NCBI GenBank assembly: GCA_031281345.1
Contig: JAITFN010000076.1
Span: forward strand, 5,725-69,724
Length of the DNA: 64,000 bases
DNA from: Candidatus Fibrimonadaceae bacterium
GTDB taxonomy: Bacteria; Fibrobacterota; Fibrobacteria; Fibrobacterales; Fibrobacteraceae
Direction of reading: 5' to 3'
The notes beneath the pieces are model-generated. The model searched no databases and was not told the origin of the DNA. It was given only the letters and a program-made list of their open reading frames with translations. A program made the translations under genes and the position numbers. Shown piece after piece: positions 18,573-56,834 of the stretch (position 1 is its first letter; the number at the start of each line of letters is the position of its first letter).

Positions 18573-18593
18573 AGAAAATTCTATATTACAATA

Positions 18594-31789: not shown

Positions 31790-32569
31790 ATGAACGCTCA
31801 CCCGCTGCATACATATCTCATGGCTCAAGGCGAACTGGGCGGTTTTGAGGTGATATTACCGTCTGAACCCCGATTCGCCCAATTACCAGAAAAGCAAGAA
31901 CGACCATCTACAGATGCTTTACCAAATGTCTGTTATACTTATTTTACCGATTCGCCCGATTTAGAAAAACCAGTTTTGGAGGTTAAGCCAAAACCTGTTT
32001 TGGAGGTTGTGCAGAAGCCCATTTTGGAAGTTGCAAAGCAAAATGATGATTCTTTGTGGAAACAAACAAGTAATCTTAATGATTTTTATGAGGCTTTGAA
32101 GGGACATTCTGTATATACTAAGGGTATGCGTCTATTAAGTTTTTGTGTTCCTGAAATAAAAACAGATGTGCCTTATTTTTTGGTTTTTAATTCGCCACTG
32201 GAATTAACGGCAGAGGCAAAGGATATTTTGGGGAGGTTGTTCAAGAAACTTGAAATAGATTTGAATAAATGCTCCGTATCTTTCTTTTTAAAATGCGAAG
32301 ATACTGCTTTGCCAAGGGAAAAAAATGTTTTAAAAGAAATGCTCTGCAAAGAAATAGAATTGGTGAATCCAGAGAAAATAATTTTCTTTAGAGAAGCACC
32401 CAAGCCAGAAAAAATTGAAACTCCCCCGCCAATAAATGGAAACGTCATAACATTTGCTGGCAAACCCGCCATAACACTATATTCTCTTTTGGAAATTCTC
32501 CCCGGAAAACCAAATGTCAAGGAAAAAATGAGCGAGGTTTTGAGTATAAGCCAAGCTTTTATTCCATAA
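31790..32569 (+). CDS. Hypothetical protein
   Basis: ORF 31778-32569 (TTG). The ATG at 31790 follows the upstream stop by 1 nt. Internal repeat KPVLEVKPKPVLEVVQKPILEV. No confident family. Confidence 0.45.
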   Translation: MNAHPLHTYLMAQGELGGFEVILPSEPRFAQLPEKQERPSTDALPNVCYTYFTDSPDLEKPVLEVKPKPVLEVVQKPILEVAKQNDDSLWKQTSNLNDFYEALKGHSVYTKGMRLLSFCVPEIKTDVPYFLVFNSPLELTAEAKDILGRLFKKLEIDLNKCSVSFFLKCEDTALPREKNVLKEMLCKEIELVNPEKIIFFREAPKPEKIETPPPINGNVITFAGKPAITLYSLLEILPGKPNVKEKMSEVLSISQAFIP

Positions 32570-34592: not shown

Positions 34593-34600
34593 TTTAGTGG

Positions 34601-34894
34601 CTAGGGTGTCCATTTATCCCTTGATGTATGCCAAAAAGCATCTATCATTACTACATCTTCATTTCCTAAATTCTCTATGTGATAAAATATCCTATATCGC
34701 TTATGTACAACAAGAGTTCTATATTCTGGAACATCCTCGTAAATACGACCTAGCAATGGCTGTTTACTTAAAATATCTATATATTTCAATATTTTTTCTT
34801 CCATTTTCGCCGCACTGTTTGGAGAAATAGCAGCAATATATCCCAAACCCTCTATAAATTCAGAAACTGCTCCATTGGTCCACTGGATTTTCAA
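34601..34894 (-). CDS. ParE/RelE-family type II toxin
   Basis: 97 aa with a TTG start. The sequence IQWTNGAVSEFIEGLGYIAAISPNSAAKMEEKILKYIDILSKQPLLGRIYEDVPEYRTLVVHKRYRIFYHIEN...VVMIDAFWHTSRD fits the ParE pattern. Confidence 0.7.
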   Translation of the reverse strand: MKIQWTNGAVSEFIEGLGYIAAISPNSAAKMEEKILKYIDILSKQPLLGRIYEDVPEYRTLVVHKRYRIFYHIENLGNEDVVMIDAFWHTSRDKWTP

Positions 34895-36634: not shown

Positions 36635-36673
36635 AATAATAATATACATTTTTTTACAAATAAATGACATTCC

Positions 36674-38734
36674 CTAATCAAAAAAACCGCTTTGCAAACT
36701 CAAAAAAATGCGATTTTCGCCTTTTTTAGTGATATTTGCGTGATTCCCAAGAGAGTATATCTGGTTGTATCCAAGCACAAAATCAAAAGTCTGCATTTTA
36801 AGCCTGATTTTTGGCTCTGCAAAAAGCCTTTTTGTTCCCATTTCGCTCCACGGATTTGGTTCTCCGTCTTTTGCAAAACCACCTACCAAAAATATGCCGC
36901 TCCCCTGCCATTGCAAAGAAAGACCCGCATGCACAAGCCCGTATAAATGCGAAGAATTATTTGGGGTTTGCCACTCTTCCATATAACTGCCCATTCCCAT
37001 AGCAAAGCGGTAGCGATTCCCTAGGGCAGGGTCTGGGTGAAAGTAACTAAGCCCGTAAAGTTTGTTTGGCATAACAATTTTTCCTTTATCTGTTCTGCGG
37101 AAATTCGCACCGAATTCCGTTCCTGTGCTTATGGATATGTATTCGCTCAGCAGCCCTGTAATTGAGAGAATGCCTTGGCTAGAAACATAAAGCGGAGCCT
37201 CTTGGTCAATGCTATGCACAGAAACAGCCTTGAAACCACCCATTAGCTGCGCCATAAAACCCTCTTTTGCAAACCATCTGTTATACCCTTCACTTTGCCA
37301 AAGCCATTTAGCATAAGGGAACATAGAACTCACACTTACAGGCTCGTACTCAAAACCTATTGGCTTAGGCTCCTCGTCATCATCTTCAAAAGCATCTTTA
37401 TCGTAAATAGGACGGCCCGAAGCACCGCTTGTTATATCTCTGCGTTCAAGTTCAACAGCAATTTGCAAACGGTCTTTTTCAATGCCAAGAACTATTCTGC
37501 TTCCGTTTTCTTTTAGCAACCTCATATCTATATAATCAATTTGCTTTTGAAAAAAAGAAGTTGGTTCGTACTCATAAAATTTCGCCTTTGCAAAAAAATC
37601 ACCACTCTCCATAAAAAATCGCTCAAAGCGCAAATTTGGCTCAATGCCTTTAACTCCCTGCCCGTAAAAAGCTGTGAAATTCAAATTGTAGCCAAATTGG
37701 TTCACAAAACGAAAATTGGCATTTGCCGCAACATTTGTACCAAAAAGCGTTCCGCCAAAACCTATAAGCGATAGCGATAAATGCGGGCTGCTCTCCGAAT
37801 TTATTTGCAACAAAGAACCTGTATCCAAAACTAAATTCACTCCCCTATAAGAACCATCTTCTTGCAAATTTCTCAAAAAATTACGAACCCCAAGAATGCC
37901 TGTATCGCTAGGGTTCCAAAAACTTTTCAAATGCTCCTGAATTTCGGCAGGAATGCTGTCAAAAACGGGAAAGTAAAGAAAGCGTGGCGGTGGAGGCGAG
38001 AGTTGATAGTTAAGAGCCCAAAGCCCAGAGCTTTGGGTGATTTGAGCTAGGCGGGAGCGGCGAGCTTGAACAGCTTGAACTCCAGTTTCAAAAAGGGAAT
38101 CGGGATTTGGTTTTGAGTGGGGGCGAAAAATTATCAACGTGGAATCTTCGCGCCACAATTTTTGCTGGTAGCGTTCCTCTGCCGAGCCATTTGTATCTCT
38201 TAGGGCTATAGAAGTGGAGAAAATTCTAACAGGTGCATCTTGTTCTCTACGAACCACCGGAGGAAAAGGATAGTTCTCTGTGCTATCTATTTTGCGAAAG
38301 GGTACTTTGGAACCTATATCAGAACGCCAAAGGCTTTCTTGAACTCTCAAATCAAAAAAAACTTGCCCGAAATACGGTTTTCTTTCGTCAAGTTCAACTA
38401 AAAAAGGAGAGCCGTCTTCTTTGTGCTTTATAAGCCATTCTTTATGCCACAAAGCAACTTTTTTAGGTTGTTCTGCCTTTGGTAGAGAGTCCCAAGATTT
38501 AATTAACTCCCTTATTTGCGCCGAACTCCAGCCCGCACTCCACAAAGCCCCCGTGAAAGCACCCCAATCACTACCTACAACTGTATCTATTGGTATTTGA
38601 AATCTCTCTATTTCGCTCAAAACCCCCAAATGATATTCAATAGAGGAATAATCTCCATTCATATATATAACCGCAGCATTTGTATGAAAAAACAAAACAG
38701 CGGTGAATAAAATGATACGAGGTATTTTAAGCAT
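36674..38734 (-). CDS. Patatin-like domain (degenerate catalytic motifs) fused to a large beta-barrel-like C-terminal region
   Basis: ORF 36674-38749. The ATG at 38734 gives signal peptide MLKIPRIILFTAVLFFHTNA. The N-terminus IYMNGDYSSIEYHLGVLSEIERFQIPIDTVVGSDWGAFTGALWSAGWSSAQIRE aligns by eye with patatin [40 protein letters not shown]. Confidence 0.55.
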   Translation of the reverse strand: MLKIPRIILFTAVLFFHTNAAVIYMNGDYSSIEYHLGVLSEIERFQIPIDTVVGSDWGAFTGALWSAGWSSAQIRELIKSWDSLPKAEQPKKVALWHKEWLIKHKEDGSPFLVELDERKPYFGQVFFDLRVQESLWRSDIGSKVPFRKIDSTENYPFPPVVRREQDAPVRIFSTSIALRDTNGSAEERYQQKLWREDSTLIIFRPHSKPNPDSLFETGVQAVQARRSRLAQITQSSGLWALNYQLSPPPPRFLYFPVFDSIPAEIQEHLKSFWNPSDTGILGVRNFLRNLQEDGSYRGVNLVLDTGSLLQINSESSPHLSLSLIGFGGTLFGTNVAANANFRFVNQFGYNLNFTAFYGQGVKGIEPNLRFERFFMESGDFFAKAKFYEYEPTSFFQKQIDYIDMRLLKENGSRIVLGIEKDRLQIAVELERRDITSGASGRPIYDKDAFEDDDEEPKPIGFEYEPVSVSSMFPYAKWLWQSEGYNRWFAKEGFMAQLMGGFKAVSVHSIDQEAPLYVSSQGILSITGLLSEYISISTGTEFGANFRRTDKGKIVMPNKLYGLSYFHPDPALGNRYRFAMGMGSYMEEWQTPNNSSHLYGLVHAGLSLQWQGSGIFLVGGFAKDGEPNPWSEMGTKRLFAEPKIRLKMQTFDFVLGYNQIYSLGNHANITKKGENRIFLSLQSGFFD

Positions 38735-38736
38735 AT

Positions 38737-39600
38737 TTAAAAGATACAAATTTCTGGTTCAAGCACAATGCCGTGTTTTTTTTTCACCTCCTGAACTATT
38801 TTCTCCATAAGTGCTTTTACATCGCTTGCTGTTGCATTTCCCCTATTTACAATAAAATTCGCATGAAGCTCAGAAACCTCTGCATCTCCTACCCTGCACC
38901 CTTTAAGTCCACAAGAATCTATCAAATAGCCCGCAGATAGATTGCTACCAGAGAGTGGCAAATTGCTGGTTGGATTTTTGAATACGGAACCAGCGTTTGG
39001 ATATTTCAAAGGTTGCTTTTCGCGCCGCCAAGTCAAAACTTCCTTTCTGTTACTTTTTATAGCTTCTTTTGGCATTGGAGTAAAATCAAATTCAGCAGAG
39101 ACGATAATTTCGTCTAACATTCTGAATGCGCTGTTTCTATAAGAAAATTTACATTCTTCATTTGTTCTTGTAACTATTTCACCATAAGTTGTAACAGAAA
39201 CAACGCTTTTTATGCAATCAGAAATTTGCTGCCCGTGTGCACCGGCATTCATAAAAATAGCACCGCCAATGGTTCCGGGTATGCCTTCAAGTTTTTCTAT
39301 TCCGCCTAAGCCTTTGTTTGCGGCAGCTTGAATAACATCGTGCAGGGATTTTCCTGCTTCCAAATTTTTCCCTATTTTAATAACCAAACCGTCATAACCA
39401 TTGTCGCTAAAAAGGACATTGCTTCCATTGCCCAAAATGAAAAATTTTTCGTTATTTTTTTTGCAAAACATCAACAACTCCCTAATTTCAGCGATTGATT
39501 TAGGTTCAGCAAAAAACTTTGCAGGGCCGCCAATTTTAAAGGTGCTGTATTTTTTTAATGAGACATTTTGAGAAATCAATGCAAACCTCCGGCAAACCAT
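38737..39600 (-). CDS. murB: UDP-N-acetylenolpyruvoylglucosamine reductase
   Basis: Motifs SLKKYSTFKIGGPAKFFAEP, ILGNGSNVLFSDNGYDGLVIKIG, GIPGTIGGAIFMNAGAHG, GSVFKNP. The start is uncertain (39600 or 39633). Either start overlaps the coaE 3' end. Confidence 0.8.
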   Translation of the reverse strand: MVCRRFALISQNVSLKKYSTFKIGGPAKFFAEPKSIAEIRELLMFCKKNNEKFFILGNGSNVLFSDNGYDGLVIKIGKNLEAGKSLHDVIQAAANKGLGGIEKLEGIPGTIGGAIFMNAGAHGQQISDCIKSVVSVTTYGEIVTRTNEECKFSYRNSAFRMLDEIIVSAEFDFTPMPKEAIKSNRKEVLTWRREKQPLKYPNAGSVFKNPTSNLPLSGSNLSAGYLIDSCGLKGCRVGDAEVSELHANFIVNRGNATASDVKALMEKIVQEVKKKHGIVLEPEICIF

Positions 39601-40093
39601 TATTATCAATATAAACCATATCCCATGTCCCATGTCCCATATCTTTTTGCATCTTCATTCTCCTTTCAATATCGCTCTGGCTCATTCCTTTTTTCAATAG
39701 GCGTTCTCTTCTTATGTTTTCAGCCGCCTCTACTACCCAAACTTCTCGCATTTTTTTTGCAAAATCTTGCCATTTATATAAAACGGCAGCTTCTATAAAG
39801 GGCGGGTTTCTCTTTTCAATTTCACGCTGCAAAAGTGGGTGAACAATACTCTCCAAAAGACAAAGTTTTTGCTCATCATTAAAAACAATTTGCGAAATAT
39901 AAGAGCGATTCACTCCATTTTCCAGAATAGCCTCATCTCCAAACTCCTCTGCAATTTTTTTTCGCAAATCCGCATTTTCCCTGTAAAGCTCATGGGCAAG
40001 GGAATCGGCATCCAAAACCTCAAACCCCGCCTCCCTAACAACAGATGCCACAAGAGATTTCCCAGAACCTATTAAACCTGTGATGGCTAGCAT
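39536..40093 (-). CDS. coaE: Dephospho-CoA kinase
   Basis: MLAITGLIGSGKSLVASVVREAGFEVLDADSLAHELY (P-loop at the N-terminus). The ORF extends to 40126, but the ATG at 40093 gives the canonical start. Confidence 0.8.
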   Translation of the reverse strand: MLAITGLIGSGKSLVASVVREAGFEVLDADSLAHELYRENADLRKKIAEEFGDEAILENGVNRSYISQIVFNDEQKLCLLESIVHPLLQREIEKRNPPFIEAAVLYKWQDFAKKMREVWVVEAAENIRRERLLKKGMSQSDIERRMKMQKDMGHGTWDMVYIDNNGLPEVCIDFSKCLIKKIQHL

Positions 40094-40441
40094 TGAAGGG
40101 AATTTAGAAATTTCTACATTATACATCTAATATGGCTTCCATATCTAAACCTTATCCCTCAGGGTCGCAGTGACGTTGCAGTTAGCAACGTCGTTTCTTA
40201 ATCTCATAAATAAATATATAATTTTACAAAACAGAGATCGAATTTTTTGGAATTCTAAAAATTTTCCCGAAAAAACAAAAGAACGCCCATATTATAAAAG
40301 CTTTACCAAGTCTTCGGGCATACTTATTCGCAATTTTTATTGTCTGACCCAGACGCCCATTCGCTACTTACTCGCTGGCGAACAGCCAAAGGCTGGTTAT
40401 TTTCAGAATTTCAATTTTCAACCCTTAAAACGGAGGTACCA

Positions 40442-42220
40442 ATGAGAATACAATTCTCTAAAACCGCATTTGTGGTAAGCTTTGGGCTTGCCTTGGCTTT
40501 TACATTTGGCTGTTCTAGCGATTCGCCTTCTGGTCCAAGCGGTGGCGAACCAAGCCCAAAACCGAGTTCTGCTTCTGCTCCGCCACAACCGAGTAGTTCT
40601 AGCTCTGTAGTTGTTGGAACGCAATATTATGATGTTATACTTGGTAATTGGAATGCTTCTTGTCCTAATTTGAACGATTATCCTGAATTGCTGAATAATG
40701 TAATATCAATAACCGATGATTCTAGAAGTTTTATGCAGACTTGTTTGATAAATCCTGAATACTATACACAGAGCACTGGTTCTCAAGTTGCAAATTTTTT
40801 AGCAACAAATGGATTATCGGGGTATGCTAACGAATTTGATTTAAGAATTGCTACGTCATCATATAATGCAGCATATTTAATTTACATAAATACCAATAAT
40901 TATTACCGTGTTTTGATAATCAGTTATAGCAGTACAAATTTACAATCTTCTAGTAGTGGGCAGAGTAGTAACGCAAGTACTTTCATAGATACTCGCGATG
41001 GAGAAACCTATAGAATAGAAACTTTCAATTCATATACTTGGATGATTGAAGATTTAAGATTTGGATCTGGTATATATAATAAGAATGAAGCTTCTACTGC
41101 TTGCCCGAATGGTTGGCATTTGCCAGATAATCTAGAAGTAATTGCTTTACAATATATTTTACAATACAATTACATAAATATCTTCGATTTTATTTCTACC
41201 GATTATTGGTGGGGATCCGAGGGAGTTTGGTATGTGGATAATGGTAAAACACACACTGTTAAATGTGGTAAAGATTATAGTTCTACTTCTCCTTGCAGTT
41301 CGGCAGGTATGGGAAATAGTGCTTCTTGTGCGAGAACGGATCCATGCTTAATCTCATATCAGGGCTCTATTAATATTCCTGATAAAAAATATAGAATTCG
41401 TTGCGTGAAGGATCAATCCGTTGCACAAAGTTCCAGCTCTGCGGTGGTACATTCGTCAAGCTCAAAGCCGAGTAGTAGTTCTAGTGCACCGCCGAGCAGT
41501 TCGTCTCTTGCTCAGAGTTCTAGCTCTACGGTGGTGCCTTCATCAAGCAGTTCTTCCATTGTGCCAAGTTCAAGCTCCGTGATGGTGTCTTCGTCAAGCG
41601 TGGTTGTTTCGAGTAGTTCTTCTGTGGTTGTGGGGTTGTGCGATGGTTTTGTAGATGGTACACCAAGAGAGCATTACGGAAAAAGTAAAGCCCAGTTTTG
41701 TGATTCTCGCGATGGCAAAAAATATGTGTACGTGACCATAAGTACACGAACTTGGATGGCGGAGAATTTGAACTATCGCGGAACTGAACCAGATACATTG
41801 GGCAGATGCTACAACAATGATCCTACCCACTGCGACGAGTATGGTAGATTGTATAACTGGGAAGCGGCTACGAAATCTTGTCCAAAAGGGTGGCATTTGC
41901 CTGGCAATGCTGAATGGGATATGCTGTATCGTTATGTAGATGGTACAAGTGGCACGACAAGTCCTTACGGAAGTTCTACGGCAGGTACGTATTTAAAGGC
42001 GACTGGTCAGGACACGTATGGTTTTTCAGCTCTACAGGCTGGCTGCTACGGTGCTCAAGCTAACGGTGCCGATGCCTATGGAGGTTGGTGGACTGCTTCG
42101 GCATTGGATGGCAGTTACGCCTACTACCGTGGTGTAAGGACATCCGACCAAGCAGCCTATTATGGTGCTTATGGTGTTAAAAACACGTACTTGCTTAGTG
42201 TTCGTTGTGTGCGAGACTAA
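40442..42220 (+). CDS. Lipoprotein with S/P-rich linkers, one degenerate and one canonical FISUMP domain
   Basis: ORF 40340-42220. The ATG at 40442 is preceded by GGAGGT and gives MRIQFSKTAFVVSFGLALAFTFGCSS. The degenerate unit reads STFIDTRDGETYRIE...CPNGWHLPD...YRIRCVKD. A ~70-aa Ser-rich linker precedes a canonical unit ending LSVRCVRD. Confidence 0.8.
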   Translation: MRIQFSKTAFVVSFGLALAFTFGCSSDSPSGPSGGEPSPKPSSASAPPQPSSSSSVVVGTQYYDVILGNWNASCPNLNDYPELLNNVISITDDSRSFMQTCLINPEYYTQSTGSQVANFLATNGLSGYANEFDLRIATSSYNAAYLIYINTNNYYRVLIISYSSTNLQSSSSGQSSNASTFIDTRDGETYRIETFNSYTWMIEDLRFGSGIYNKNEASTACPNGWHLPDNLEVIALQYILQYNYINIFDFISTDYWWGSEGVWYVDNGKTHTVKCGKDYSSTSPCSSAGMGNSASCARTDPCLISYQGSINIPDKKYRIRCVKDQSVAQSSSSAVVHSSSSKPSSSSSAPPSSSSLAQSSSSTVVPSSSSSSIVPSSSSVMVSSSSVVVSSSSSVVVGLCDGFVDGTPREHYGKSKAQFCDSRDGKKYVYVTISTRTWMAENLNYRGTEPDTLGRCYNNDPTHCDEYGRLYNWEAATKSCPKGWHLPGNAEWDMLYRYVDGTSGTTSPYGSSTAGTYLKATGQDTYGFSALQAGCYGAQANGADAYGGWWTASALDGSYAYYRGVRTSDQAAYYGAYGVKNTYLLSVRCVRD

Positions 42221-42303
42221 TTTGTACCAATGGTGGTATAAACTTCGTCAAATCTTGTGTTCCCAAGGGTTTGACAATGGTGGAAAACATAGGAGAGTTG
42301 AAT

Positions 42304-42918
42304 ATGCGTGAAATAGATGAAGAAGAATATAAATCTCATTTTAAGACAGGCTTAACTAGCTGTCCAAAAGATATTCACAAAGAAGCCTATAAAATAGCCA
42401 ATGAAAATCGCAAATTTGAAATAGATAATTATTGGAAAAGAGCAAATTACTATTGGTTGTTTCAAATATCTGTTTATACAGGATATTTCTATTCCATTAC
42501 GGTACAAAATGATAAATATATTTGCAAACACCCTGGATTTATAATAGTTGGAATAACTTGCCTCGGATTTTTAACCGCTCTTGCGTGGTTTTTTTCTAAT
42601 AGAGGAAGCAAAAAGTGGCAGGAAAATTGGGAAAGCCATGTAGATAGTTTGGAAAACGAAATAACTGGACCTTTATATAAAACTACAAGTTGCAAAGAAA
42701 CTTGGTCTGTTTCCAGAATAAATGAAATAGTGAGCGGTTTTTCTATTGTAGTGTGGGTACTTTTAGGTATAGAAACTGTTTGCAGTTTTTTTAGTTGTAC
42801 TTTGCTCATAATATATTTAGTGGCAATGTGTGCAATCGCAGGTTCTTTCTATTTCTATGGAAAAGGTTTGAAAGATAGAGATAAAGAAATTCATTGGTTC
42901 AAAGTAGGAGAAGACTAA
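42304..42918 (+). CDS. Four-TM membrane protein (possibly RipA-family-like)
   Basis: ORF 42205-42918. The ATG at 42304 is preceded by AGGAGAG with a 5-nt spacer. Motifs NRKFEIDNYWKRANYYWLFQISVYTGYF and FSNRGSKKWQENWESHVDSLENEITGPLYK. Two further C-terminal TM helices. Confidence 0.6.
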   Translation: MREIDEEEYKSHFKTGLTSCPKDIHKEAYKIANENRKFEIDNYWKRANYYWLFQISVYTGYFYSITVQNDKYICKHPGFIIVGITCLGFLTALAWFFSNRGSKKWQENWESHVDSLENEITGPLYKTTSCKETWSVSRINEIVSGFSIVVWVLLGIETVCSFFSCTLLIIYLVAMCAIAGSFYFYGKGLKDRDKEIHWFKVGED

Positions 42919-42919
42919 A

Positions 42920-43210
42920 ATGAGTGAATATGAAAGTAAGGATTTAGATGATATTCTTTTAGATACGGTTAAAGAATTAAACGGTATCGTAAAAGAACGG
43001 GTAAAAAAGCTAAAAGAAATTGAATTAAACGAGGGAAAGAAATTTGATGAAGATTTTTCAGATACAGTTAAGAAATTAAACCAAATCGTGAAGATACACG
43101 AACAAATCAAAATATCAAAATTCAATACTTGCTACAAATATCTTATAATTCCGATAATATTACTCGCTTTATGTGTAGTAATTTTTCTTTGTTGGGCGGG
43201 ATGTAGATGA
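42920..43210 (+). CDS. Small tail-anchored coiled-coil protein
   Basis: 96 aa starting 1 nt after the upstream stop, with an AGGAG upstream. Internal duplication DTVKELNGIVKE / DTVKKLNQIVKI. C-terminal TM YLIIPIILLALCVVIFLCWAGC. Confidence 0.55.
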   Translation: MSEYESKDLDDILLDTVKELNGIVKERVKKLKEIELNEGKKFDEDFSDTVKKLNQIVKIHEQIKISKFNTCYKYLIIPIILLALCVVIFLCWAGCR

Positions 43211-43232
43211 ATAGGTTGTTGGGAGGTAGAAA

Positions 43233-43757
43233 ATGGAAAAAGATAAAATTATCTCAACTATACTAAAAAATATATTACCGGAAATAAAAGAGTATTTTCC
43301 GTATCTTATATTTATTCTATGGGCTTCATCTCTAATATGTGTATTCCTTCCAGAATGCTACTTAGAAAAATTATACTTAAAAGAATTTAGAGAAGAAAGA
43401 AAAGAATGGTTTGGAATGTCATTCATAGTATTATCTGCATCTATTTTTGTTATAGTATCATTTGATAGATGGGAACTATTTAAAATCAATAAAACTATAA
43501 AAAATATGGATTTTCCCGAATTGAATATATTGTATCAATATTTTTACAAAACAAATATAAATACTATGTCGCTTAGTAAAAATACTCCAACTGTTAGTTG
43601 TTTAGAATATAGGGGGATTATATTAAAGATATTAACTGGAACTGATAAAGCGTATTATTCTATAAATCCCTATTATAAAAAAGCATTGTTCAAACGTTTG
43701 AAAAAAGAAGCAAATAATATAGAGAATATGAATGTTCTTGCATCTAAGGAGGAATAA
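43233..43757 (+). CDS. Superinfection-exclusion protein B (SieB)-like 2-TM protein
   Basis: 174 aa with GGGAGG upstream. The N-terminal hairpin reads PYLIFILWASSLICVFLPECYLEKLYLKEFREERKEWFGMSFIVLSASIFVIV. The C-terminal part LNILYQYFYKTNINTMSLSKNTPTVSCLEYRGIILKI fits my recollection of PF14163 members (LFLP---L-KL-L-EF---Y---IG; L---E--IL--F------L-L-----V--L---GII). Confidence 0.5.
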   Translation: MEKDKIISTILKNILPEIKEYFPYLIFILWASSLICVFLPECYLEKLYLKEFREERKEWFGMSFIVLSASIFVIVSFDRWELFKINKTIKNMDFPELNILYQYFYKTNINTMSLSKNTPTVSCLEYRGIILKILTGTDKAYYSINPYYKKALFKRLKKEANNIENMNVLASKEE

Positions 43758-43758
43758 A

Positions 43759-44919
43759 ATGGAAATAGGGATTATTTTTGTTGTTATTATTGGTATTGGG
43801 CTTGTTTCATTTATAATACTTAAAATAAAAAATCATTCTAATAATTTGAACGAGTTAAAAGAAGAATTGCAAGAAAATAAGCACGATATTAACCGTACCA
43901 TCGCAGACTATACCGAAGTTCTCAAAATATATCCTAATGATTATGAGATACTGAAACTTCGTGGCAATGCGTACTGGAACGAAGGCTATATTGACCGTGC
44001 CATTGCGGACTATACCGAAGCTCTCAAAATAAAGCCTGATGATTATGATGTACTGAAACTTCGTGGCAATGCGTACTGGAACATAGGCGATATTGACCGT
44101 GCCGTTGCGGACTATACCGAAGTTCACAAAATAAAGCCTGATGATTATGAGATACTGAAACTTCGTGGTATTATGTACGAGGACAATGCCGATTTTGACC
44201 GTGCCATTACGGACTATACTGAAACTCTCAAAATAAAGCCTAAAGACTACGATGTCCTATACTTGCGTGGCAGAGTGTATGACGACCACAAAGGCAATTT
44301 TGACCGTGCCATCGCAGATTATACTGAACTACTTAGAATAAGTCCTGATAATAGAGAGATACTGAAACTTCGTCATGATGCGTATTGTAAAAAGGGCGAT
44401 TTTGACCGTGCCATTGCAAATTATAATGAATTACTCAGAATAGATACTGATGATGCCGACACTCTAATATTGCGTAGCGATGCGTATCGTAAAAAGGGCG
44501 ATTTTGACCGTGCCATCTCAGATTGTAACGAAGCTCTTAAAATAATAATAATAAAGGAAGCTCTTGAAATATCAGACCTAACTCGAATGCTTTATAACTT
44601 TTGGAAATGCGATATTTTGGAGCACCGTGGCATGGCGTATGCCGACAAAGGTGATTTTGACCAAGCTATTATGGACTATACCAAAGCTCTCAAAATAATA
44701 AAGATTTATATTTATGGTAAGGATAAGATACTGAAACTTCGTAGCAATGCGTATTACTTAAAAGGTAGCTATAACCAGGCCATTAAGGATTTGAAAGCAG
44801 TATTAAAAATTAATCCGTATGATGTTGACGCTATAAAAAGTCTCAAAGAAATTCGTCAAAAGAATGGTTGGAAAATAAGAAAATTGATATGGAATATCAA
44901 AAATTTGAGATTCAAATGA
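43759..44919 (+). CDS. Membrane-anchored TPR-repeat protein
   Basis: ORF 43732-44919. The ATG at 43759 is preceded by AAGGAGGA and follows the upstream stop by 1 nt. An N-terminal TM (MEIGIIFVVIIGIGLVSFIIL) is followed by about ten 34-aa units (DRAIADYTEALKIKPDDYDVLKLRGNAYWN-G). Confidence 0.8.
   Translation: MEIGIIFVVIIGIGLVSFIILKIKNHSNNLNELKEELQENKHDINRTIADYTEVLKIYPNDYEILKLRGNAYWNEGYIDRAIADYTEALKIKPDDYDVLKLRGNAYWNIGDIDRAVADYTEVHKIKPDDYEILKLRGIMYEDNADFDRAITDYTETLKIKPKDYDVLYLRGRVYDDHKGNFDRAIADYTELLRISPDNREILKLRHDAYCKKGDFDRAIANYNELLRIDTDDADTLILRSDAYRKKGDFDRAISDCNEALKIIIIKEALEISDLTRMLYNFWKCDILEHRGMAYADKGDFDQAIMDYTKALKIIKIYIYGKDKILKLRSNAYYLKGSYNQAIKDLKAVLKINPYDVDAIKSLKEIRQKNGWKIRKLIWNIKNLRFK
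43891..44530. repeat. 102-bp coding tandem repeats (TPR units), first three near-identical
   Basis: For example, 43993-44094 versus 44095-44196 share gaccgtgcc(a/g)ttgcggactataccgaag(c/t)tc(t/a)caaaataaagcctgatgattatga. Units degenerate further downstream. Confidence 0.7.
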
Positions 44920-45069
44920 AAAAAGATACTCTTATTTATCATTATTGCAGCTTGACAAAGACAAGGTTAAAGAATTGCTTTACCCTAAAAAATTTTCCCA
45001 AATGGGGTAGCGAACCACTAAAAACCGCAATATGTCCAAAAGTGGTTGGCATATGCACGTTGGTTTCGG

Positions 45070-45486
45070 CTACGTTTCCTCAAGTATTTCCATAAATTTT
45101 GAAAACGAAACTATTTCTGTTTGCTCGTATTTTCCAAGTGCCAATAAATCTTTATCCCCTGTAAGCAAAAAATTTGCTCCAACTGCGGCAGACAATGCAA
45201 GCAAATACAAATCATCCTGATCTTTAAACTCTGGCATAACAACATCATCAACTGGATCAGCAACGCAGTATTTTTTAATAATATCAAATACAATAAGAAT
45301 ACTTTCTTCGTCTTGAATATATTTTTTTACTTTTGCTCGCGAACTTACATCTAGATATTCTTCTACGATTTTATGACTGCTAACAATAACGACATTTTTG
45401 TTTAGGCATAAATCCTTTATTTTTTTTAATCTTTTGCTTATAAGAAGAGAAACCCATAAATTTGTGTCTATAACTATTTTATACAT
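45070..45486 (-). CDS. PIN-domain toxin (PIN_3 / TIGR00305-like)
   Basis: 138 aa. Motifs MYKIVIDTNLWVSLLIS ... DQDDLYLLALSAAVGANFLLTGDKDLLALGKY. Confidence 0.75.
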   Translation of the reverse strand: MYKIVIDTNLWVSLLISKRLKKIKDLCLNKNVVIVSSHKIVEEYLDVSSRAKVKKYIQDEESILIVFDIIKKYCVADPVDDVVMPEFKDQDDLYLLALSAAVGANFLLTGDKDLLALGKYEQTEIVSFSKFMEILEET

Positions 45487-45734
45487 AAGCGTTTTGATAT
45501 GGATTTCCTCATTTTTTCAGTTTTCTTTAAATCTTCTTCCCAATTCCTATTAAGTTTGCCGTACTTATTCCCATATCTAACCATATTAACCTCTTCCTGA
45601 ATTTCTTCGTCTGTAAGAGAAACATTTTTTGAACATATTTTTTCAAGTTTTTCAAAAAGATAGCTACACTGCCCAGCTAATTCTGAATAATTAGCTTCTG
45701 TTGTCAAAGTTTTTTTAGCGGTCATTGTAGTCAT
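45474..45734 (-). CDS. Putative cognate antitoxin of the PIN toxin
   Basis: 86 aa. Overlaps the PIN start by 13 nt. No family recognised. Confidence 0.45.
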   Translation of the reverse strand: MTTMTAKKTLTTEANYSELAGQCSYLFEKLEKICSKNVSLTDEEIQEEVNMVRYGNKYGKLNRNWEEDLKKTEKMRKSISKRLCIK

Positions 45735-45788
45735 TTTTTACCTCTAAAGAGAATATAGAAAATATTCGTGTCTATGAAATAACGCATT

Positions 45789-45920
45789 TTACCTCATAAC
45801 TGCACGCATATCGTGGATAATTAAAGGTTCGCCATTTGGATGTTTTAAACGCCACAAAGCATATTTTGACAATTTTTTAGGTTTTGCCTTAACTTGTTTT
45901 TTTTCTGCTATCTTCATCAT
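45789..45920 (-). CDS. Small basic ORF (43 aa), function unknown
   Basis: MMKIAEKKQVKAKPKKLSKYALWRLKHPNGEPLIIHDMRAVMR, with AGGAG 5 nt upstream. Lies 54 nt upstream of 45474-45734 on the same strand. Confidence 0.3.
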   Translation of the reverse strand: MMKIAEKKQVKAKPKKLSKYALWRLKHPNGEPLIIHDMRAVMR

Positions 45921-46074
45921 AATGTCTCCTATTAAGTTAATTTACTATACAAATATAACAAAATTTCTGTCAATATAGCCAAAAAAAGTGAAAGGTTGTG
46001 CATTTGGCATACAACTGTTGCCAAATTCGCGGCTTTTGCAATGGCATTTTATAATATTTAGAAATTTCTACATT

Positions 46075-47697
46075 ATGGCTATGCCTAATATAAATGTCTC
46101 AGAAATTTGGAAACAAATACAAGTCCCGGATTTTAACCCAGAACGTGATGCGGCACTTGTGGAACAGGTAAAGCAAGCGGCAATTAGTTCAACTGAGCCT
46201 GCTGTTGTGAGTTTTGGCACAAGCGGTTGGCGCGGTGAAATAGGTTCTGAATTCACGCTTAAAAATATTCAGGTTGTGGCAAAAGCCATTTTGCAAGTTT
46301 ACAGAGATGCAGATGCAACCACTTTTGAAGCACTAGGCGTAAATTCTTTTGAAGAATTGCAAACAAAAGGTTTGGTGCTTGGACACGATAACCGCTTGCT
46401 CGGCAAAGAATTCTGCGAAGTTGTGGCAGACCAATTCATAAAAGCTGGCATAAAGGTTTATTATGGCGGCGAAATGCCAACACCGGAATTCAGTGCAGCC
46501 ATAGAGCTTTTGGGTGCGGCTTGCTCGGTGAATATGACACCTTCCCATAATCCAAATCATTACAATGGAATAAAATTCAATCCGGCAGACGGAGGCCCAG
46601 CAGGTCCAGAAATCACGGATAAAATAACCGCTAATTCAAACAACCTAATGAAAACCCACGTCCTAGAAGAAATGGGTAGCATAAATTGGGAAATAATAGA
46701 CCCAATTAAAATCTATAAGTTATTCTCAGAAAAACAGGGAACAATAAAATACGGAAGAATTCAATCCTTGCTCTCAAAAGAAAGCATAGACTTGGTGTGC
46801 GACCACGTTCACGGCTCAACAAGAGGCAGGCCTGCCGCATTTTTGAACAACCCTCAGTGCCTAACCAGCCTAAGAACCGAAACAGACCCCTTGTTTGGCG
46901 GCATTGCTCCAGAACCATCTTCTAAAAACCTAGCTGGCGTAAAGCGTATTTTAGATGAAAGCAAAAGCCGCTTTCGCATAGGTGCAATTTTTGACCCAGA
47001 CGGCGATCGCATTCGCTTTTACGATGGCACAAGAGAAATAGATATGAACAGTTTTGGCGCGCTGGCTTTTCACTATATGGTGACTTGGCGCAAAGAAGAA
47101 GGCGTTTTAGCAAAATCTGTTGCAACATCCAATTTTGCAAATATCATAGCAACAAAACTAGGCATACCTGTTATGGAAACCCCTGTTGGCTTTAAAAACT
47201 TTCGCCCTTGGTTAAAGAGAAACGCAAATCCAAAAGCCTTGATAGCCTTTGAGGAATCCGATGGCATAACAGGACTGAACAATACCTTGGAAAAAGACGC
47301 TTGTTTTGGGCTTTTGCTTGCACTTGAAATTATGGCTGTAACAGGCAAAAACCTAGGCGAATACTTAGACCTTTTATACGCAGAATATGGCCGTCTATAC
47401 CCCGAACGCTCTGGCTTTGAGGTGGACAAATCTTTGGTTGGCGCTCCCCTATTGGATAAGGTTCAAAAAATAGCAGAGTCTGCGCAACCTGGCACGCAAA
47501 TTTCTGTGGGCAGCAAAAACAAAAGTGTCAAAGAACTGATAACCATAGACGGCGTTAAAATAATATTCACAGATGATTCTTGGATGCTAATCCGCCCAAG
47601 CGGAACAGAACCAAAAGTTCGCATTTACGCCGAATGCCGCGACCTAGAAGAAAAAGAAGATATGTTTAAAACAGCACAAAAATTATTTTTTAGCTGA
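46075..47697 (+). CDS. Alpha-D-phosphohexomutase family protein (phosphoglucomutase/phosphomannomutase)
   Basis: ORF 45988-47697. The likely start is MAMPNINVSE. Motifs FGTSGWRGE, active-site loop MTPSHNPNHYNGIKF, FDPDGDRIRF, GFEESDG-like FEESDGITG, IRPSGTEPKVRIY. Confidence 0.8.
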   Translation: MAMPNINVSEIWKQIQVPDFNPERDAALVEQVKQAAISSTEPAVVSFGTSGWRGEIGSEFTLKNIQVVAKAILQVYRDADATTFEALGVNSFEELQTKGLVLGHDNRLLGKEFCEVVADQFIKAGIKVYYGGEMPTPEFSAAIELLGAACSVNMTPSHNPNHYNGIKFNPADGGPAGPEITDKITANSNNLMKTHVLEEMGSINWEIIDPIKIYKLFSEKQGTIKYGRIQSLLSKESIDLVCDHVHGSTRGRPAAFLNNPQCLTSLRTETDPLFGGIAPEPSSKNLAGVKRILDESKSRFRIGAIFDPDGDRIRFYDGTREIDMNSFGALAFHYMVTWRKEEGVLAKSVATSNFANIIATKLGIPVMETPVGFKNFRPWLKRNANPKALIAFEESDGITGLNNTLEKDACFGLLLALEIMAVTGKNLGEYLDLLYAEYGRLYPERSGFEVDKSLVGAPLLDKVQKIAESAQPGTQISVGSKNKSVKELITIDGVKIIFTDDSWMLIRPSGTEPKVRIYAECRDLEEKEDMFKTAQKLFFS

Positions 47698-47706
47698 AAA
47701 TCCATA

Positions 47707-49296
47707 GTGCTTCACACTCTAATACTAGCTGCAGGACTAGGAACAAGGCTCCGCCCCTTAACCGAGCGAATAGCAAAACCCCTTATTCCCATAGCGGATA
47801 ACTGCCCCCTTGGGCGGCAAGCATTGCTTGCAAAAAAAATAGGTTCCAAAAAAATTCACGCAAACGCTCACCATTTGGCAGAGCAAGTACAAAACGCAGC
47901 CACAGAACTCGGTATTGACAAGGTTTGGTATGAGAGAGAAATTTTGGGAACAGGTGGCCCAATTCAAAGAATGTATAATGAAGGTGAGAGAGGCGAGCTA
48001 CTTGTTTTGAATGGAGACTGCGAACACAATTTGGATATAGAAACATTTTTGGAACAAGCGAGAAATTCAGGAGCTACTTGCGCACTTCTCGCAATAGACA
48101 ACCCAGAAGTAAATACGCTCTGCATTAAAGACGGACATTTGGTTGGCATAGAAAATAGATTTGGTGAAAAAGGAACTGAAAACGCAACATTCACAGGCAT
48201 ATCTTGGTATTCAGAAAAAGCTTGGGAACAAGTTGCAGAAAAAGATATAAGAGATTTTTGGGCAAAACTGATAAAAAAAGGCGAAAATCCTTTTGTGCAA
48301 ATAGCAGATAAAAATTCACTTTGGATAGATATTGGCTCCCCAGAAGGCTTGATGAAAGCAGTGTCTAACAAAAACCCAGATTCTTTTGCTACCGCTGGTT
48401 CCGCTGGTTCTGGAAGAAAATATTACAGAATGGAATGTGCTGGGTATTCTCTGATTTTGCAGCAGTCTTACGAAGGAGACCAAGATTTTGAGCGTTTTGT
48501 CCGTTACGGAAAATTGTTCAACACGTTGGAACTCCCAACACCGGAAATTTACGCCGTTGACGAAAAAGAAAAGCGTGTTGTTATGCAAGATTTGGGTTCT
48601 GTTAGGCTCTGCGATGCCACGCAACCAATGCTCCACTACGGAGCCGTTTTGGAAAAGCTGATTGTTTGGCAAGAGGCGAGCGAGCGAGCCTTTTCCCTTG
48701 ACAATGAACTCGCAAACAGAATTTTTGACGAAAACTATTATCTTTGGGAAACATCTTACTTTGCAGAAAACTATTTGCAAGCACATTTAGGATACACCGA
48801 AATCCCAGCGGATTTATCCGCATTTCTCAAAGACTTGGCAAAGAAAGCAATAGCACAGCCAAAAGTTTTGATGCACAGAGATTTTCAGTCGCAAAACATA
48901 ATGATTTATGGCGAAAATAAAATTGCCTTCATAGATTTTCAAGGTGCAAGGAACGGTTCAATTTACTATGACGTAGCTTCTCTGTTGTGGGATCCGTATA
49001 TGATGATTCCAGCAGAAACTGTTAAACATTTGTTTGAACTTTGGTTTAGTGCAAATCCTCTTTTGAAAAGCGTTTCGTTTGAAAATGCTTGGGAAGATTT
49101 TTTAGTAGCAAGCACTCAGAGAATTATGCAAGCTCTCGGAGCTTATTGTTTTTTGAGCAAGAAAAAAGGGATAAAATCTTTTGAGCAGTATATAGAGCCT
49201 GGGGCTAAAAGATTGGGGGAGATTTTAATTAAATCTGAGCATCACGGCCATTTCAAAGGAAAGGGTTTGGCGGGTATGGGCTTCGCCACCTTGTAG
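47707..49296 (+). CDS. Bifunctional sugar-1-phosphate nucleotidyltransferase / sugar kinase (MurU-like plus AmgK-like fusion)
   Basis: 529 aa with a GTG start. The N-terminus reads LILAAGLGTRLRPLTERIAKPLIPI (NTP-transferase). The C-terminus reads LMHRDFQSQNIMI ... FIDFQGARNGSIYYDVASLLWDPY (APH-type kinase as in AmgK). Confidence 0.6.
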   Translation: MLHTLILAAGLGTRLRPLTERIAKPLIPIADNCPLGRQALLAKKIGSKKIHANAHHLAEQVQNAATELGIDKVWYEREILGTGGPIQRMYNEGERGELLVLNGDCEHNLDIETFLEQARNSGATCALLAIDNPEVNTLCIKDGHLVGIENRFGEKGTENATFTGISWYSEKAWEQVAEKDIRDFWAKLIKKGENPFVQIADKNSLWIDIGSPEGLMKAVSNKNPDSFATAGSAGSGRKYYRMECAGYSLILQQSYEGDQDFERFVRYGKLFNTLELPTPEIYAVDEKEKRVVMQDLGSVRLCDATQPMLHYGAVLEKLIVWQEASERAFSLDNELANRIFDENYYLWETSYFAENYLQAHLGYTEIPADLSAFLKDLAKKAIAQPKVLMHRDFQSQNIMIYGENKIAFIDFQGARNGSIYYDVASLLWDPYMMIPAETVKHLFELWFSANPLLKSVSFENAWEDFLVASTQRIMQALGAYCFLSKKKGIKSFEQYIEPGAKRLGEILIKSEHHGHFKGKGLAGMGFATL

Positions 49297-52200
49297 CTGT
49301 TCTCTTAAACGCCGATATTCTATATAGGCACTTGCGCTGGCAAGTTTGTTAAAAGAATAACCTGCACTTGGACGTAGATACCATTCGTGCGAGCGATTTG
49401 TAACATTGTAGCCTACTCTTTTAAGTTCGGGGGTATAGCTTGTTCGCTCACCACCACCAGGCATTTGCACCTCAGCGTGTACCCCAGAAGCTGTCCCACT
49501 TGCAGGGGTGTAAGGGTTAAAACCCTCAAATGGAACATAGTCTTCTTTAATAAGCTTCTTATAACTATAACCGCTTGCAAGTTTCAAGTCTATATCGTTG
49601 TCTAGCTTTATATACCAACGCCAGAACTGAAAACCTCTTTTGGCTTTAAGAGCATAAGCTATTGAAAGTTCGTCTCCAGCGGCATAGCCTCTATCCACGG
49701 TTTTGTCTATATATAGCCAAGGAATTTTTAAGTAATAATCTTCATCAATTTCTTTCCAGCCTTCGGTATCAGGTAATTCCATTTTTGCTCGCCTCACCTG
49801 CTCTTCCGTTTTAAATCTAACGCTGTTATCTATGCGAATATTTCCCTGCGTTAATGCGCTTATGCGAATGAGCGGGTTAAAATCTATTGTGGTTTGCCAT
49901 TCATCTTCTGCGCTCTGATAGGGACGAACAGTGTAACGTTCCTGATAGTCAAAACGGTGCGAAGTTGAAAGGCTGCGAAGTTTACCATTGAAAAACTCAA
50001 AACGATGCGCAAAATTTGGGACATTCACCCCAATTCCAAGTCTTGGCCAAGTTGTTGTTGTGTCTATATACAAAGGATTTTCTCTTGTTTGCCTGAATGT
50101 TTCATTCCAAGTTAAATCGCCTTTAACGCCAATATCCCACCAAGGCAAAGTGAGCGAGGTACTGTTTGTTAAATTGCGCCTAATGCTATGTTCAAAACGC
50201 CCCTGATAAACAATGGTATCTGTGTTCTTGTTTCTGTACTGCGCAAAACCTTCGTAATCTTCTCTTGTTTTTAGCCCCATATCGCCGCTCATTAGATTCC
50301 AAAAACCTCTGTTGCTATAGCCATCGCCAATACCAAGGCCAAACAGATAATACTGAAGGGGATCCACGCCTTGCTCCTCGTATAATTGCCAAAGAGTAAA
50401 ATCTTCGCCATTTGTTTGCAAATCCACGCTCCAAGTGCTACGAATTTCTTGCCACTTTAATTTTTCAAAAAAACTGCTAACAGGATTTTTTCCAGCTATG
50501 CCAGCAAGTTCTTGCAATCTTAAACTCGGAGAAAATTCAAAGCGGTTGTTTTGCTGAATTGTCCAAAAATTCTTTGAAAGTGTTTCGTTGTCATAAAAAT
50601 TAAAATCTTTCGGAATGGATTTACTCTGAGTAAAGCCGCTGTTAAAAGAAAATCTCATCGGTAAAAATGGAATCCAGTCTGCAGATAAATTTGCTCTAAA
50701 ATCTTGCCTGCGATTTCGTTCGTTGCGCAAAATTCCATAAGCTCTGCCATATTCCCTTGAACCAACGCTGTCTATTTCGTACGAATAAGCAGTTTGGTAT
50801 ATGGTATCTTGTGCCCCTGTGCTATCGTTGGTGATAATTTGCAAGGGATATTCGTAAGAAACTTCTCTAACATACATTCTTCTATCGGTGTGGTCGTAGT
50901 CAAAAATAAAGTTTCTGGCAAATAAACCACCCTCACCGCTTGGGCTAAAAAAATCTTCCTTCACAAAAGCCTGCCTATCGCCACCTGCATACATATCGCG
51001 GTTTACATTTAGAGTGTAATTGAGGTTAAAGAATGGCAAAATGTTCCAACGAATATCTGCTTTATGAGTTAAATCCGTTGTGAAATTCGTTATTTTTTCC
51101 ACCTGAGGATCCATAAAATTCGGGTCTCTCTCTTGATTTTCTGTTCTGCTATAAGACAAATCCATCACAGTTAAATCAAAAGTTCCTGGCCACAGTTCAA
51201 CGGGTAAGTTTTTATTGCCAAACAGATAGGTGCTGCTTCGTTCAAAAGGCCCTAGTTTATATTCCAAAACCGTGTTGTACTGATAAAGGCTATCTGCGAT
51301 TTTTGCTGAACGCCGCTCGGTTTCCCTATAAGAATAATTCAAAGCAGGACGTTCCAAAAACACTTGCCCGAAAATTTCTTGAAAAATATTATCACTTTTT
51401 CTGTAATCTTTGCTAAAACCAATAGATAAAGTTCTTGAACGAGAAAAACTCTGATACCCTTTGGACAGAGAAGCATCTCTTAAAGAATGTTCTTCACTTG
51501 TATCTTTAACTTCCAAACCAAATGTTGCAAAATCTCCAAACATATCAAAAGCGTTATCTTGGCTAAGAGCAATGTCATCGTCTGGTTTCAAATAAGGGCG
51601 AAGCGTTGTGGAACTGTAGCTAATTCCAAAAGGCAAACGCAAACCGTAATCATCTTTGAAAAATTTGTTTATGTTTAGGCTTGCAGTTCCATTTACATCC
51701 AAGCGGGTATTCGCTTCGCTGAGTGTTGGTTTTGGGCTTTTTCCTTCTGATTTAAGAGTTGCAAAATTCCCGTCTTGATAGCGCAACTCGCCAGAAATGG
51801 AAAACACATCGGAAAAATCTAATTGCCCGTGCATTCTTGTGGCATAACCCCAAGCATTGTTTATTCCAGAAAGCCGCAAATCGTTAATCCAAAAAGTTCC
51901 CTCCAAGTCTTCCAAAGATGCATCGTTATCTGCTATAATAACAAAGCGTATCCAGTTTATGCTGCTGTTAGAGGGATTTCCCACCACTTTTATCACTTCT
52001 TTTCTGTTATCTTTTGTTAAAGTGTCTGTTACCGTATTAAAAAATTCCCTGCCTACTTTTAACTCCGAAAACTTGGAAAGCGGAAGTGAAAAAGCATTTG
52101 CTCTCCAATTATTTTCGTGGCAATCCTGAATTCTCTCTCTATCGCTACATTCAAGTTTTTCTGGTTTAAAAGACCATTCGTAATAATCTTGGCTGCCATC

Positions 52201-56695: not shown

Positions 56696-56734
56696 ATTGA
56701 ACTCCTTTGTTGAATTGTTGAAAGGAAACTTATA

Positions 56735-56750: not shown

Positions 56751-56834
56751 CAGAAAGACACGTAGGTCTGCCCGTACGGAACCTGTGTGCGAGGCTCGGT
56801 TAGGGTGGTAGTTTTTAAGCTGTGGGTCATCCTA

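Follow-up and report, generated by a model that had tools for sequence, protein, structure and literature searches.

Two separable membrane-protein gene pairs, RipA/8xMP with a tail-anchored coiled coil and SieB-like with a TPR protein, in a strain-specific insertion of a Fibromonadaceae bacterium: candidate phage-exclusion cassettes

Gene structure and protein families of the g1-g4 block

A stretch of 64,000 nucleotides from Candidatus Fibrimonadaceae bacterium (assembly GCA_031281345.1, contig JAITFN010000076.1, positions 5,725 to 69,724 of the forward strand; the whole stretch is hereafter called the window) was analysed with respect to a block of four genes, designated g1 to g4, which encode a RipA/8xMP-family membrane protein, a tail-anchored coiled coil, a SieB-family protein and an N-terminally anchored tetratricopeptide repeat (TPR) protein, respectively. 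In an earlier note made from the sequence of the window, the block had been proposed to be one membrane-anchored phage-exclusion or abortive system of four genes. The genes were found to form two separable cassettes, g1-g2 (cassette A) and g3-g4 (cassette B), that lie side by side in a strain-specific insertion. The observations given below establish the gene structure, the families, the insertion, the company that 8xMP genes keep in defence islands and prophages, and the fact that the two pairs are each conserved and can occur apart; the coordinates are collected in Table 1.

The list of open reading frames (ORFs) agreed with the claim of four co-directional ORFs, with spacers of 1, 22 and 1 nt, the widest of which falls exactly at the g2|g3 module boundary. 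The start codons of g1-g4 agreed with the lengths and N-termini of their homologues, and the four are real genes and not chance ORFs, because each has conserved homologues elsewhere. Transmembrane (TM) segments, claimed for every product, were found by hydropathy in all four. The block had also been described as A+T-rich, and its GC content was 0.25-0.33 over 42250-44000 against 0.40-0.48 in the flanks; the fall to 0.25-0.33 extends across g1-g3, with a sharp drop between g1 and the preceding gene, g0, which encodes a FISUMP lipoprotein. Searches of PADLOC-DB v2 gave no significant match for g1-g4 (best, g2 against NsnA, E 0.014), in line with the statement that no described system has this composition.

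The tentative assignment of g1 to the RipA family was confirmed by a match to PF24838 (8xMP; E 5.8e-37, 127 bits at a cut-off of 30). UniRef gives members of this family the name 'RipA family octameric membrane protein', so that the RipA assignment was right, and the link between g1 and Francisella RipA rests on this name; octameric assembly, which the family name states, would hold for g1 by analogy. The family of g1 comprises more than 1,100 homologous clusters, and one Fibrobacteria genome carries three 8xMP paralogues. A protein identical to g1 bears the name of a termite-gut Fibromonadaceae metagenome-assembled genome, the kind of genome from which the window comes. Three segments of g1 exceeded the hydropathy threshold, and four long helices were present in the AlphaFold2 (AF2) model, a monomer of moderate confidence (predicted local distance difference test score (pLDDT) 78). 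The conserved motifs FEI-NYWKR, GSK-WQENWE-HVD-LE and ITGPLYK (invariant in FEI-NYWKR, GSK-WQ-NWE and GPLYK; invariant residues F38, E39, Y43, W44 and R46; G101, S102, W105 and W109; G122, P123, L124 and Y125) are predicted from the model and the positive-inside rule to sit in helix extensions facing the cytoplasm. Foldseek searches with the g1 model against PDB and BFVD gave nothing below E 0.3, and searches of PDB by sequence and profile with g1 and g3 gave nothing meaningful (best, gp41-like, E ~0.1). A faint match of g1 residues 44-114 to NCBIfam SLATT_1 was obtained (E 0.21, 11.6 bits at a cut-off of 41), and SLATT in Pfam gave no match for g1. A literature search on 8xMP, PF24838 or RipA with phage defence returned only RIPA buffer and unrelated RipA proteins, and no paper was found in it that gives 8xMP a defence role or documents an octamer.

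No family in any library searched was matched by g2. Its presumed C-terminal anchor was found by hydropathy as a TM segment at 75-93, and the duplicated DTVK-LN-IVK helix ascribed to it is real and is present in some homologues only; by the charge rule, its coiled coil would be cytoplasmic. Homologues of g2 (36-90% identity) were found directly 3' of g1 homologues at five further Fibromonadaceae loci (L001, L004 twice, L086 and L095), where the g1-g2 junction is a 1-nt gap or an overlap and no SieB-like or TM-TPR gene follows. At L009, the gene after 8xMP encodes a protein that is divergent in sequence and shares this architecture (coiled coil and C-terminal TM). In the Fibrobacteria genome R8-3-H12 (L004:3817-12175), 2.4 kb separate the two 8xMP+g2 cassettes, a small ORF and a FISUMP gene (or a fragment of one) stand in front of each of them, and a third 8xMP paralogue lies on another contig.

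The resemblance of g3 to superinfection exclusion protein SieB was borne out by a PF14163 match (E 5e-12, 46.1 bits at a cut-off of 26) that spans positions 3-119 of the 147 in the profile. Among 1.8 billion representatives, a profile search yielded 72 relatives of typical SieB length, the SieB hidden Markov model (HMM) was matched by 60/60 aligned members of the extended g3 family, and at least one locus was found by a metagenome scan with the g3 alignment. Hydropathy placed TM segments at 21-39 and 59-77, and the AF2 model (pLDDT 95.5) shows a hairpin of two TM helices, a compact domain of helices and strands and, at the C-terminus, a long helix. The best PDB matches of the soluble part by Foldseek are all winged-helix proteins (CodY C-terminal domain, MarR/SarA and TubR), and residues ~94-145 of the model may constitute a membrane-tethered winged helix-turn-helix domain; no mention of a winged-helix domain in SieB was found in the literature searched. 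Neighbours of the g3 clade, known from few loci, include an AbiH-like fragment, a DUF2971-like gene, Bro-N and ParA. At two loci, L005 (beside Bro-N and ParA genes) and L099, a g3 relative occurs without g1, g2 or a g4-type partner.

For g4, described as a TM helix followed by about ten TPR units, the TM (at 3-21 by hydropathy) and the TPR array were recovered, and the count proved slightly generous, with 8 stretches detected by HMM. The array is also repetitive as DNA (repeat family D2, ~7 copies of 102 bp). By the charge rule it would be cytoplasmic, and the soluble parts of all four proteins would in that case come together on the cytoplasmic side of the inner membrane. The g3-g4 pair was found without g1 or g2 at three loci, where the junction of the two genes is conserved: a g4 homologue (~68% identity) begins 10 nt after g3 at L100, a TM-TPR gene lies 1 nt after the g3 homologue at L094, and at L090 the gene that overlaps g3 by 4 nt starts MKIGIIFVVIIGIGVVSFIMFKIKNH, where the g4 N-terminus reads MEIGIIFVVIIGIGLVSFIILKIKNH, its likeness to g4 being in the N-terminus.

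Separability, insertion and genomic context

A lack of co-occurrence of the four genes in other genomes had been named beforehand as refuting the four-gene system. The full set was seen nowhere but in this window, and the claim was not borne out. Since each pair occurs without the other, g1-g4 are two separable two-gene cassettes side by side, and the suggestion that a TPR sensor acts on pore effectors does not hold for the whole block and applies at most to g3-g4. The only other meeting point of g1, g2 and g3 is L098, where 8xMP is followed by a chimeric ORF (L098:227-556) in which 18 g2-like residues are fused to an AbiH-like C-terminus, and then by a frameshifted SieB-like g3 (L098:559-1168). 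L098 is a decaying junction of two cassettes and gives direct evidence of recombination at these sites. A 106-aa gene 5' of 8xMP in L086 and a 104-aa gene 5' of SieB in L090 are 87.5% identical, which shows that cassettes have been reshuffled among sites.

The g1-g4 block is accessory DNA that is missing from the closest relative (pgm 92% identical; L104-L106), in which murB and pgm are adjacent. Window positions 36633-39591 align to L104 7005-9955 (81%) and 46056-47701 to L104 9976-11621 (87%), the flanks being 20 nt apart in the relative and 6,464 bp apart in the window. A perfect 21-nt direct repeat, ATTTAGAAATTTCTACATTAT, brackets 5,954 bp with g0, g1-g4 and a PIN toxin-antitoxin pair; it occurs in two exact copies only in the window, related copies differing at three or more positions. 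The repeat is a probable recombination or insertion junction, on evidence that is suggestive, not proven. It contains the host motif TTCTAYATT, and its left copy may double as a promoter-type signal for g0-g4. No tRNA, integrase or phage genes were found in the 6,464-bp insertion, and a prophage remnant was rejected on this ground; a housekeeping envelope operon was rejected because the closest relative lacks the block, which elsewhere occurs patchily and in several copies. The housekeeping gene coaE falls in DNA that the closest relative lacks at the murB/pgm site; either that relative has coaE elsewhere or the site has undergone repeated rearrangement, and the surroundings of the site are different again in the more distant L107.

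The PIN toxin-antitoxin locus reported to follow the block at 45070-45734 was confirmed as to its toxin (PIN_3/TIGR00305), while the 86-aa partner, a presumed antitoxin, matched no family in the libraries searched. This pair is a separate cassette (C), outside g1-g4, because it lies on the opposite strand and has its own TTCTATATT signal (45752-45760, by the 86-aa partner). The ParE locus said to lie 7 kb upstream was found as a ParE toxin gene at 34601-34894(-), 7.4 kb upstream.

The AGGAG-type Shine-Dalgarno sequences (SDs) reported for the block were present, as AGGAG/GGAGG, 5' of all four true starts, whereas most of the ~50 other window genes are without an SD and have TTCTAYATT just 5' of the start codon instead. 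This motif occurs in 20 exact copies in the window against 2.4 expected, usually 0-12 nt 5' of the start codons of SD-less genes, and is probably a promoter or leaderless-start signal of this lineage. The only + strand TTCTAYATT ahead of the block, at 40112, precedes g0, which suggests co-transcription of g0-g4, g0 being likely the first gene of the transcription unit; no terminator-like site was found between g0 and g1 or inside g1-g4 by a promoter/terminator scan that is uninformative for this phylum. The SD-bearing genes of the window are mostly operon-internal, and the SD contrast may reflect an operon-internal position behind a FISUMP gene, not only foreign origin.

A FISUMP gene was located directly upstream on the same strand in 9/11 related Fibromonadaceae 8xMP/SieB loci, and the series FISUMP, small ORF, 8xMP, g2 occurs twice in a row at L004. 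We think that the cassettes borrow transcription from FISUMP genes, which would explain why they carry SDs where first genes are mostly without one. FISUMP genes are very dense here (12 in the 64-kb window, or ~1 gene in 5), 8xMP thrives in phyla and elements without FISUMP, and the downstream cassettes are interchangeable, so that adjacency to FISUMP, considered at first as strong functional evidence, was downgraded and is poor evidence of a functional partnership.

Relatives of 8xMP, 379 in a one-genome-per-species collection, were distributed over Bacteroidota, Proteobacteria, Chlorobiota, Acidobacteriota, Spirochaetota, Bacillota and other phyla; their adjacent genes vary from locus to locus, and there is no constant partner across phyla. 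An association with defence genes had been put forward for checking, and the g1 family was found recurrently beside such genes in unrelated genomes, judged by raw counts of 128 closely spaced same-strand neighbours from 80 genomes of many phyla. Recurrent neighbours were parts of type I, II and III restriction-modification (R-M) systems, Abi_alpha, Shedu SduA_C, SIR2 (4-5 loci) with HerA, FRG (4), TIR/ThsB, KAP NTPase, NERD, RES, DUF4145, the PADLOC candidate PDC-S15 (4), integrases and transposases; no lpx genes were found beside g1 or among the sampled 8xMP neighbours. 8xMP was also present on 6 plasmids only, among insertion sequence elements, a toxin-antitoxin pair and Pif-type genes, and on 51 IMG/VR contigs. 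In ~5 P2-like prophages among the latter, it has tail S and baseplate V/W genes around it, a moron-type position, and on other contigs it stands beside OLD/AbiEii-type ATPases, BsobI R-M genes or FRG. Hotspots of accessory and defence genes are known from P2-like prophages, also within the tail genes (PMC13586616, PMC9122126). The context of 8xMP is the signature of a stand-alone accessory gene living where defence genes live.

In four of the IMG/VR contigs (L111, L113, L115 and L118), the 8xMP gene, at ~4001-4600, is in opposite orientation within the baseplate/tail interval of the P2-like prophage, flanked by baseplate genes (~116 + 220 aa, W/V-like) and tail genes (~149 + 170 aa, S/R-like). 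Near-identical Bro-N (antirepressor-like) genes were seen near the SieB-like gene of L005 (5397-5930) and near the 8xMP gene of L007 (7679-8581), a hint that mobile elements of one kind carry both cassettes or accompany them.

Table 1. Positions of the genes, repeats, motifs and other features of the window
Feature	Position	Strand	Size	Remarks
g1	42304-42918	+	204 aa	RipA/8xMP-family membrane protein, cassette A
g2	42920-43210	+	96 aa	tail-anchored coiled coil, cassette A
g3	43233-43757	+	174 aa	SieB-family protein, cassette B
g4	43759-44919	+	386 aa	N-terminally anchored TPR protein, cassette B
Tandem DNA repeat of the g4 TPR array	43884-44564	+	102-bp (34-aa) unit	TRF period 102, ~77% matches
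Strain-specific insertion	39592-46055		6,464 bp	murB/phosphomannomutase (pgm) interval; coaE, g0, g1-g4, PIN pair
Direct repeat ATTTAGAAATTTCTACATTAT, left copy	40102-40122	+	21 nt	perfect repeat
Direct repeat ATTTAGAAATTTCTACATTAT, right copy	46056-46076	+	21 nt	exactly at the right boundary of the insertion
coaE (dephospho-CoA kinase)	39536-40126	-		Pfam CoaE, E 7e-28
g0 (FISUMP lipoprotein gene)	40442-42220	+		Pfam Fib_succ_major, E 1.4e-27; 83-nt spacer to g1
PIN-domain toxin, cassette C	45070-45486	-		PF13470 PIN_3, E 1e-14; TIGR00305, E 2e-19
Presumed antitoxin, upstream of the PIN gene	45474-45734	-	86 aa	overlaps the PIN gene by 13 nt
FISUMP-domain hits	95-1306, 4442-5908, 5845-7011, 8220-8834, 8771-10015, 14039-14632, 19925-21559, 23577-24164, 32562-34613(-), 40298-42217, 56087-56842(-)
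TTCTAYATT, examples of copies	17470-17478, 18579-18587, 19141-19149, 23566-23574, 46066-46074

Some further features of the window were recorded. Small unannotated ORFs follow several FISUMP genes (7407-7886, 10076-10579 and 21567-22055) and may be further cassettes. FISUMP-family starts at 140, 2486, 5908 and 8834 share a near-identical leader, CCACCCAAAGGAG(A/G)GGCAAA, directly 5' of the ATG, which is a conserved 5' element of this paralogous family. The Ser-rich linkers of the g0 protein are encoded at 41417-41599 by imperfect 45-nt direct repeats in three copies, and a minus-strand ORF of 2,237 aa (49225-55938) lies downstream of the right flank of the island.

Proposed phage exclusion and competing explanations

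On balance, and with a confidence only a little above even, we favour the reading that the block consists of stacked, independently mobile two-gene cassettes in a strain-specific insertion and that the membrane pairs are phage-exclusion or abortive-infection modules; the site is best read as a small hotspot in which three cassettes (8xMP+g2, SieB+TPR and the PIN pair) have accumulated. The topology, the roles of effector and regulator, and the anti-phage function are deduced from family membership and genomic context. In the proposed scheme, g1-g4 would be co-transcribed from the upstream FISUMP gene, and both membrane cassettes would work at the cytoplasmic face of the inner membrane in phage exclusion or abortive infection. 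The oligomer of 8xMP would be the membrane-perturbing or membrane-gating effector of cassette A, restrained or triggered by the coiled-coil g2 as a lineage-specific regulator. In cassette B, the SieB-like g3 would be the effector, a phage cue leading to a shutdown of macromolecular synthesis as with P22 SieB, and the TPR protein g4 would serve as a protein-binding sensor or restraint. SieB is described as halting macromolecular synthesis when a superinfecting phage is halfway through its lytic cycle (PMC10883804).

Several observations weigh against this reading. No relatives of g1 were found in 50,697 curated phage genomes, and the g3 clade was present in neither phage collection (the 50,697 phage genomes and IMG/VR, at BLAST-level sensitivity). 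The winged-helix similarity of g3 is weak by Foldseek E value (~0.01-0.1; probabilities up to 1.0), and the g3-g4 pairing was found in only 4/8 g3 lineages. The PADLOC models match none of g1-g4, and no recognised defence system except the toxin-antitoxin pairs is present in the window's own island. FISUMP genes precede nearly all the Fibromonadaceae copies, which a FISUMP-related envelope role would fit, and the work on Francisella RipA, the namesake of the family, connects it with LpxA and the homeostasis of lipid A and not with phages (PMC4322802).

A single defence system in which all four membrane proteins are integrated, the TPR protein sensing infection and controlling the other three as joint effectors, would be consistent with the close spacing (1, 22 and 1 nt) on one strand, with the SDs of all four genes, with the lack of an internal terminator-like site (by a scan uninformative for this phylum), and with the order 8xMP, g2 remnant, SieB-like repeated in L098. 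It is nevertheless highly improbable, as the complete set was found only in this window, g1+g2 occur alone in 5 loci, g3+g4 alone in 3 lineages and g3 alone in 2, L098 is decayed, the widest gap falls at the g2|g3 boundary, and 8xMP is without a constant partner across phyla. Improbable too is the view of g1-g4 as FISUMP-linked envelope accessory genes without a phage role, acting in the anchoring, export or quality control of, or in immunity to, the upstream lipoprotein. The 9/11 loci with FISUMP directly upstream, the repeated series of L004 and the sole + strand TTCTAYATT ahead of g0, which suggests co-transcription, speak for it, but the FISUMP background is high in this window, 8xMP occurs in defence islands, prophages and plasmids of hundreds of genomes from phyla with no FISUMP seen at the locus, and GC drops sharply between g0 and g1; the interchangeability of the cassettes (8xMP, SieB or others) is more in keeping with a common site of expression or recombination than with a dedicated partnership.

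We consider rather unlikely, though by no means far-fetched, that the cassettes are selfish or physiological and have no anti-phage role, either as addiction pairs (toxin g1 or g3, antidote g2 or g4) or with g1 as a horizontally acquired RipA-like regulator of lipid A. In favour of this, each pair joins a small membrane protein to a partner, toxin-antitoxin loci flank the block (PIN, and ParE upstream) and stand beside other 8xMP loci as well, and in Francisella, RipA is co-precipitated with LpxA and has an effect on LpxA stability (PMC4322802). On the other hand, most 8xMP genes across phyla have no conserved partner, unlike a toxin-antitoxin pair, and the genes beside them are for the most part bona fide defence genes rather than genes of envelope synthesis; g1 is not a core envelope function, because the closest relative lacks the gene, and for SieB an exclusion phenotype has been described (PMC10883804). 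A bolder form of the phage-exclusion reading would make 8xMP proteins widespread, unrecognised membrane anti-phage effectors and the SieB-TPR pair a new two-component type of SieB abortive infection, which we regard as possible but doubtful. It would tentatively have 8xMP carried singly in defence islands and prophage cargo sites and supplied with a dedicated tail-anchored partner in Fibromonadaceae, and, with equal reserve, g3 as a winged-helix-bearing membrane effector under the control of a TPR sensor.

Significance and comparison with known systems

The families concerned are themselves known; new are a TPR partner of a SieB-family protein and a tail-anchored partner of a RipA/8xMP protein. 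If the favoured reading of exclusion cassettes is true, the Pfam family 8xMP/RipA, so far without an assigned role, would acquire a function in phage exclusion that can be tested, and the reading of the Francisella RipA phenotype could change. SieB, to our knowledge among the oldest known exclusion genes and still without a mechanism, would gain a structural hypothesis in the membrane-tethered winged-helix domain, and its TPR-partnered variant could help to identify the SieB trigger. Small membrane cassettes would be seen to shuffle into sites downstream of FISUMP genes in termite-gut Fibrobacterota, and such FISUMP-linked sites would be a practical starting point in the search for accessory genes in a phylum that lacks genetic tools. 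Even if the inference of function fails, the 'four-gene system' should not be listed as one unit in defence catalogues; of greater interest as a lead is the broad association of 8xMP, a family in no defence catalogue queried (PADLOC), with defence islands and prophages.

With the SieB proteins of P22 and lambda (PF14163), g3 shares the size class of ~170-200 aa and the predicted N-terminal 2-TM hairpin followed by a cytoplasmic domain, and it would be expected to act likewise as an abortive-infection effector in the membrane. It differs in being only 19-28% identical to the broader family, in its membership of a narrow clade of 8 clusters from termite-gut Fibromonadaceae, in lying on no recognisable prophage where SieB is encoded by phages or prophages, and in being often paired with a membrane-tethered TPR protein. 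We know of no TPR pairing at the sieB loci of P22 or lambda. The Esc product of the SieB phage gives self-immunity.

Compared with Francisella tularensis RipA, g1 is a strong family member (127 bits) in which all the invariant motifs are present. Francisella RipA is a protein of the cytoplasmic membrane with two cytoplasm-accessible essential domains, and RipA-like proteins are found in an 'eclectic group of organisms' (PMC4322802); the predicted topology of g1, with two conserved segments in the cytoplasm, agrees with these two domains. Francisella RipA has been studied as a factor of virulence and lipid A homeostasis, whereas g1 is accessory and multi-copy in relatives and, unlike Francisella RipA as studied, has a tail-anchored coiled-coil partner and relatives in defence islands and prophage cargo sites.

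The adjacent, convergent PIN pair resembles type II PIN toxin-antitoxin pairs (TIGR00305/PF13470) in that a PIN_3 toxin gene overlaps a small upstream gene, and differs in that the antitoxin matches no family. The site as a whole resembles the defence and accessory hotspots of P2/P4 (PMC9122126, PMC13586616) in being a short variable interval between conserved genes with interchangeable small cassettes, which are swapped, shared between contexts and sometimes fused, as in the L098 chimera. In contrast to those hotspots, it is chromosomal, between murB and pgm, without integrase, tRNA or phage genes, and its cassettes tend to sit downstream of FISUMP lipoprotein genes.

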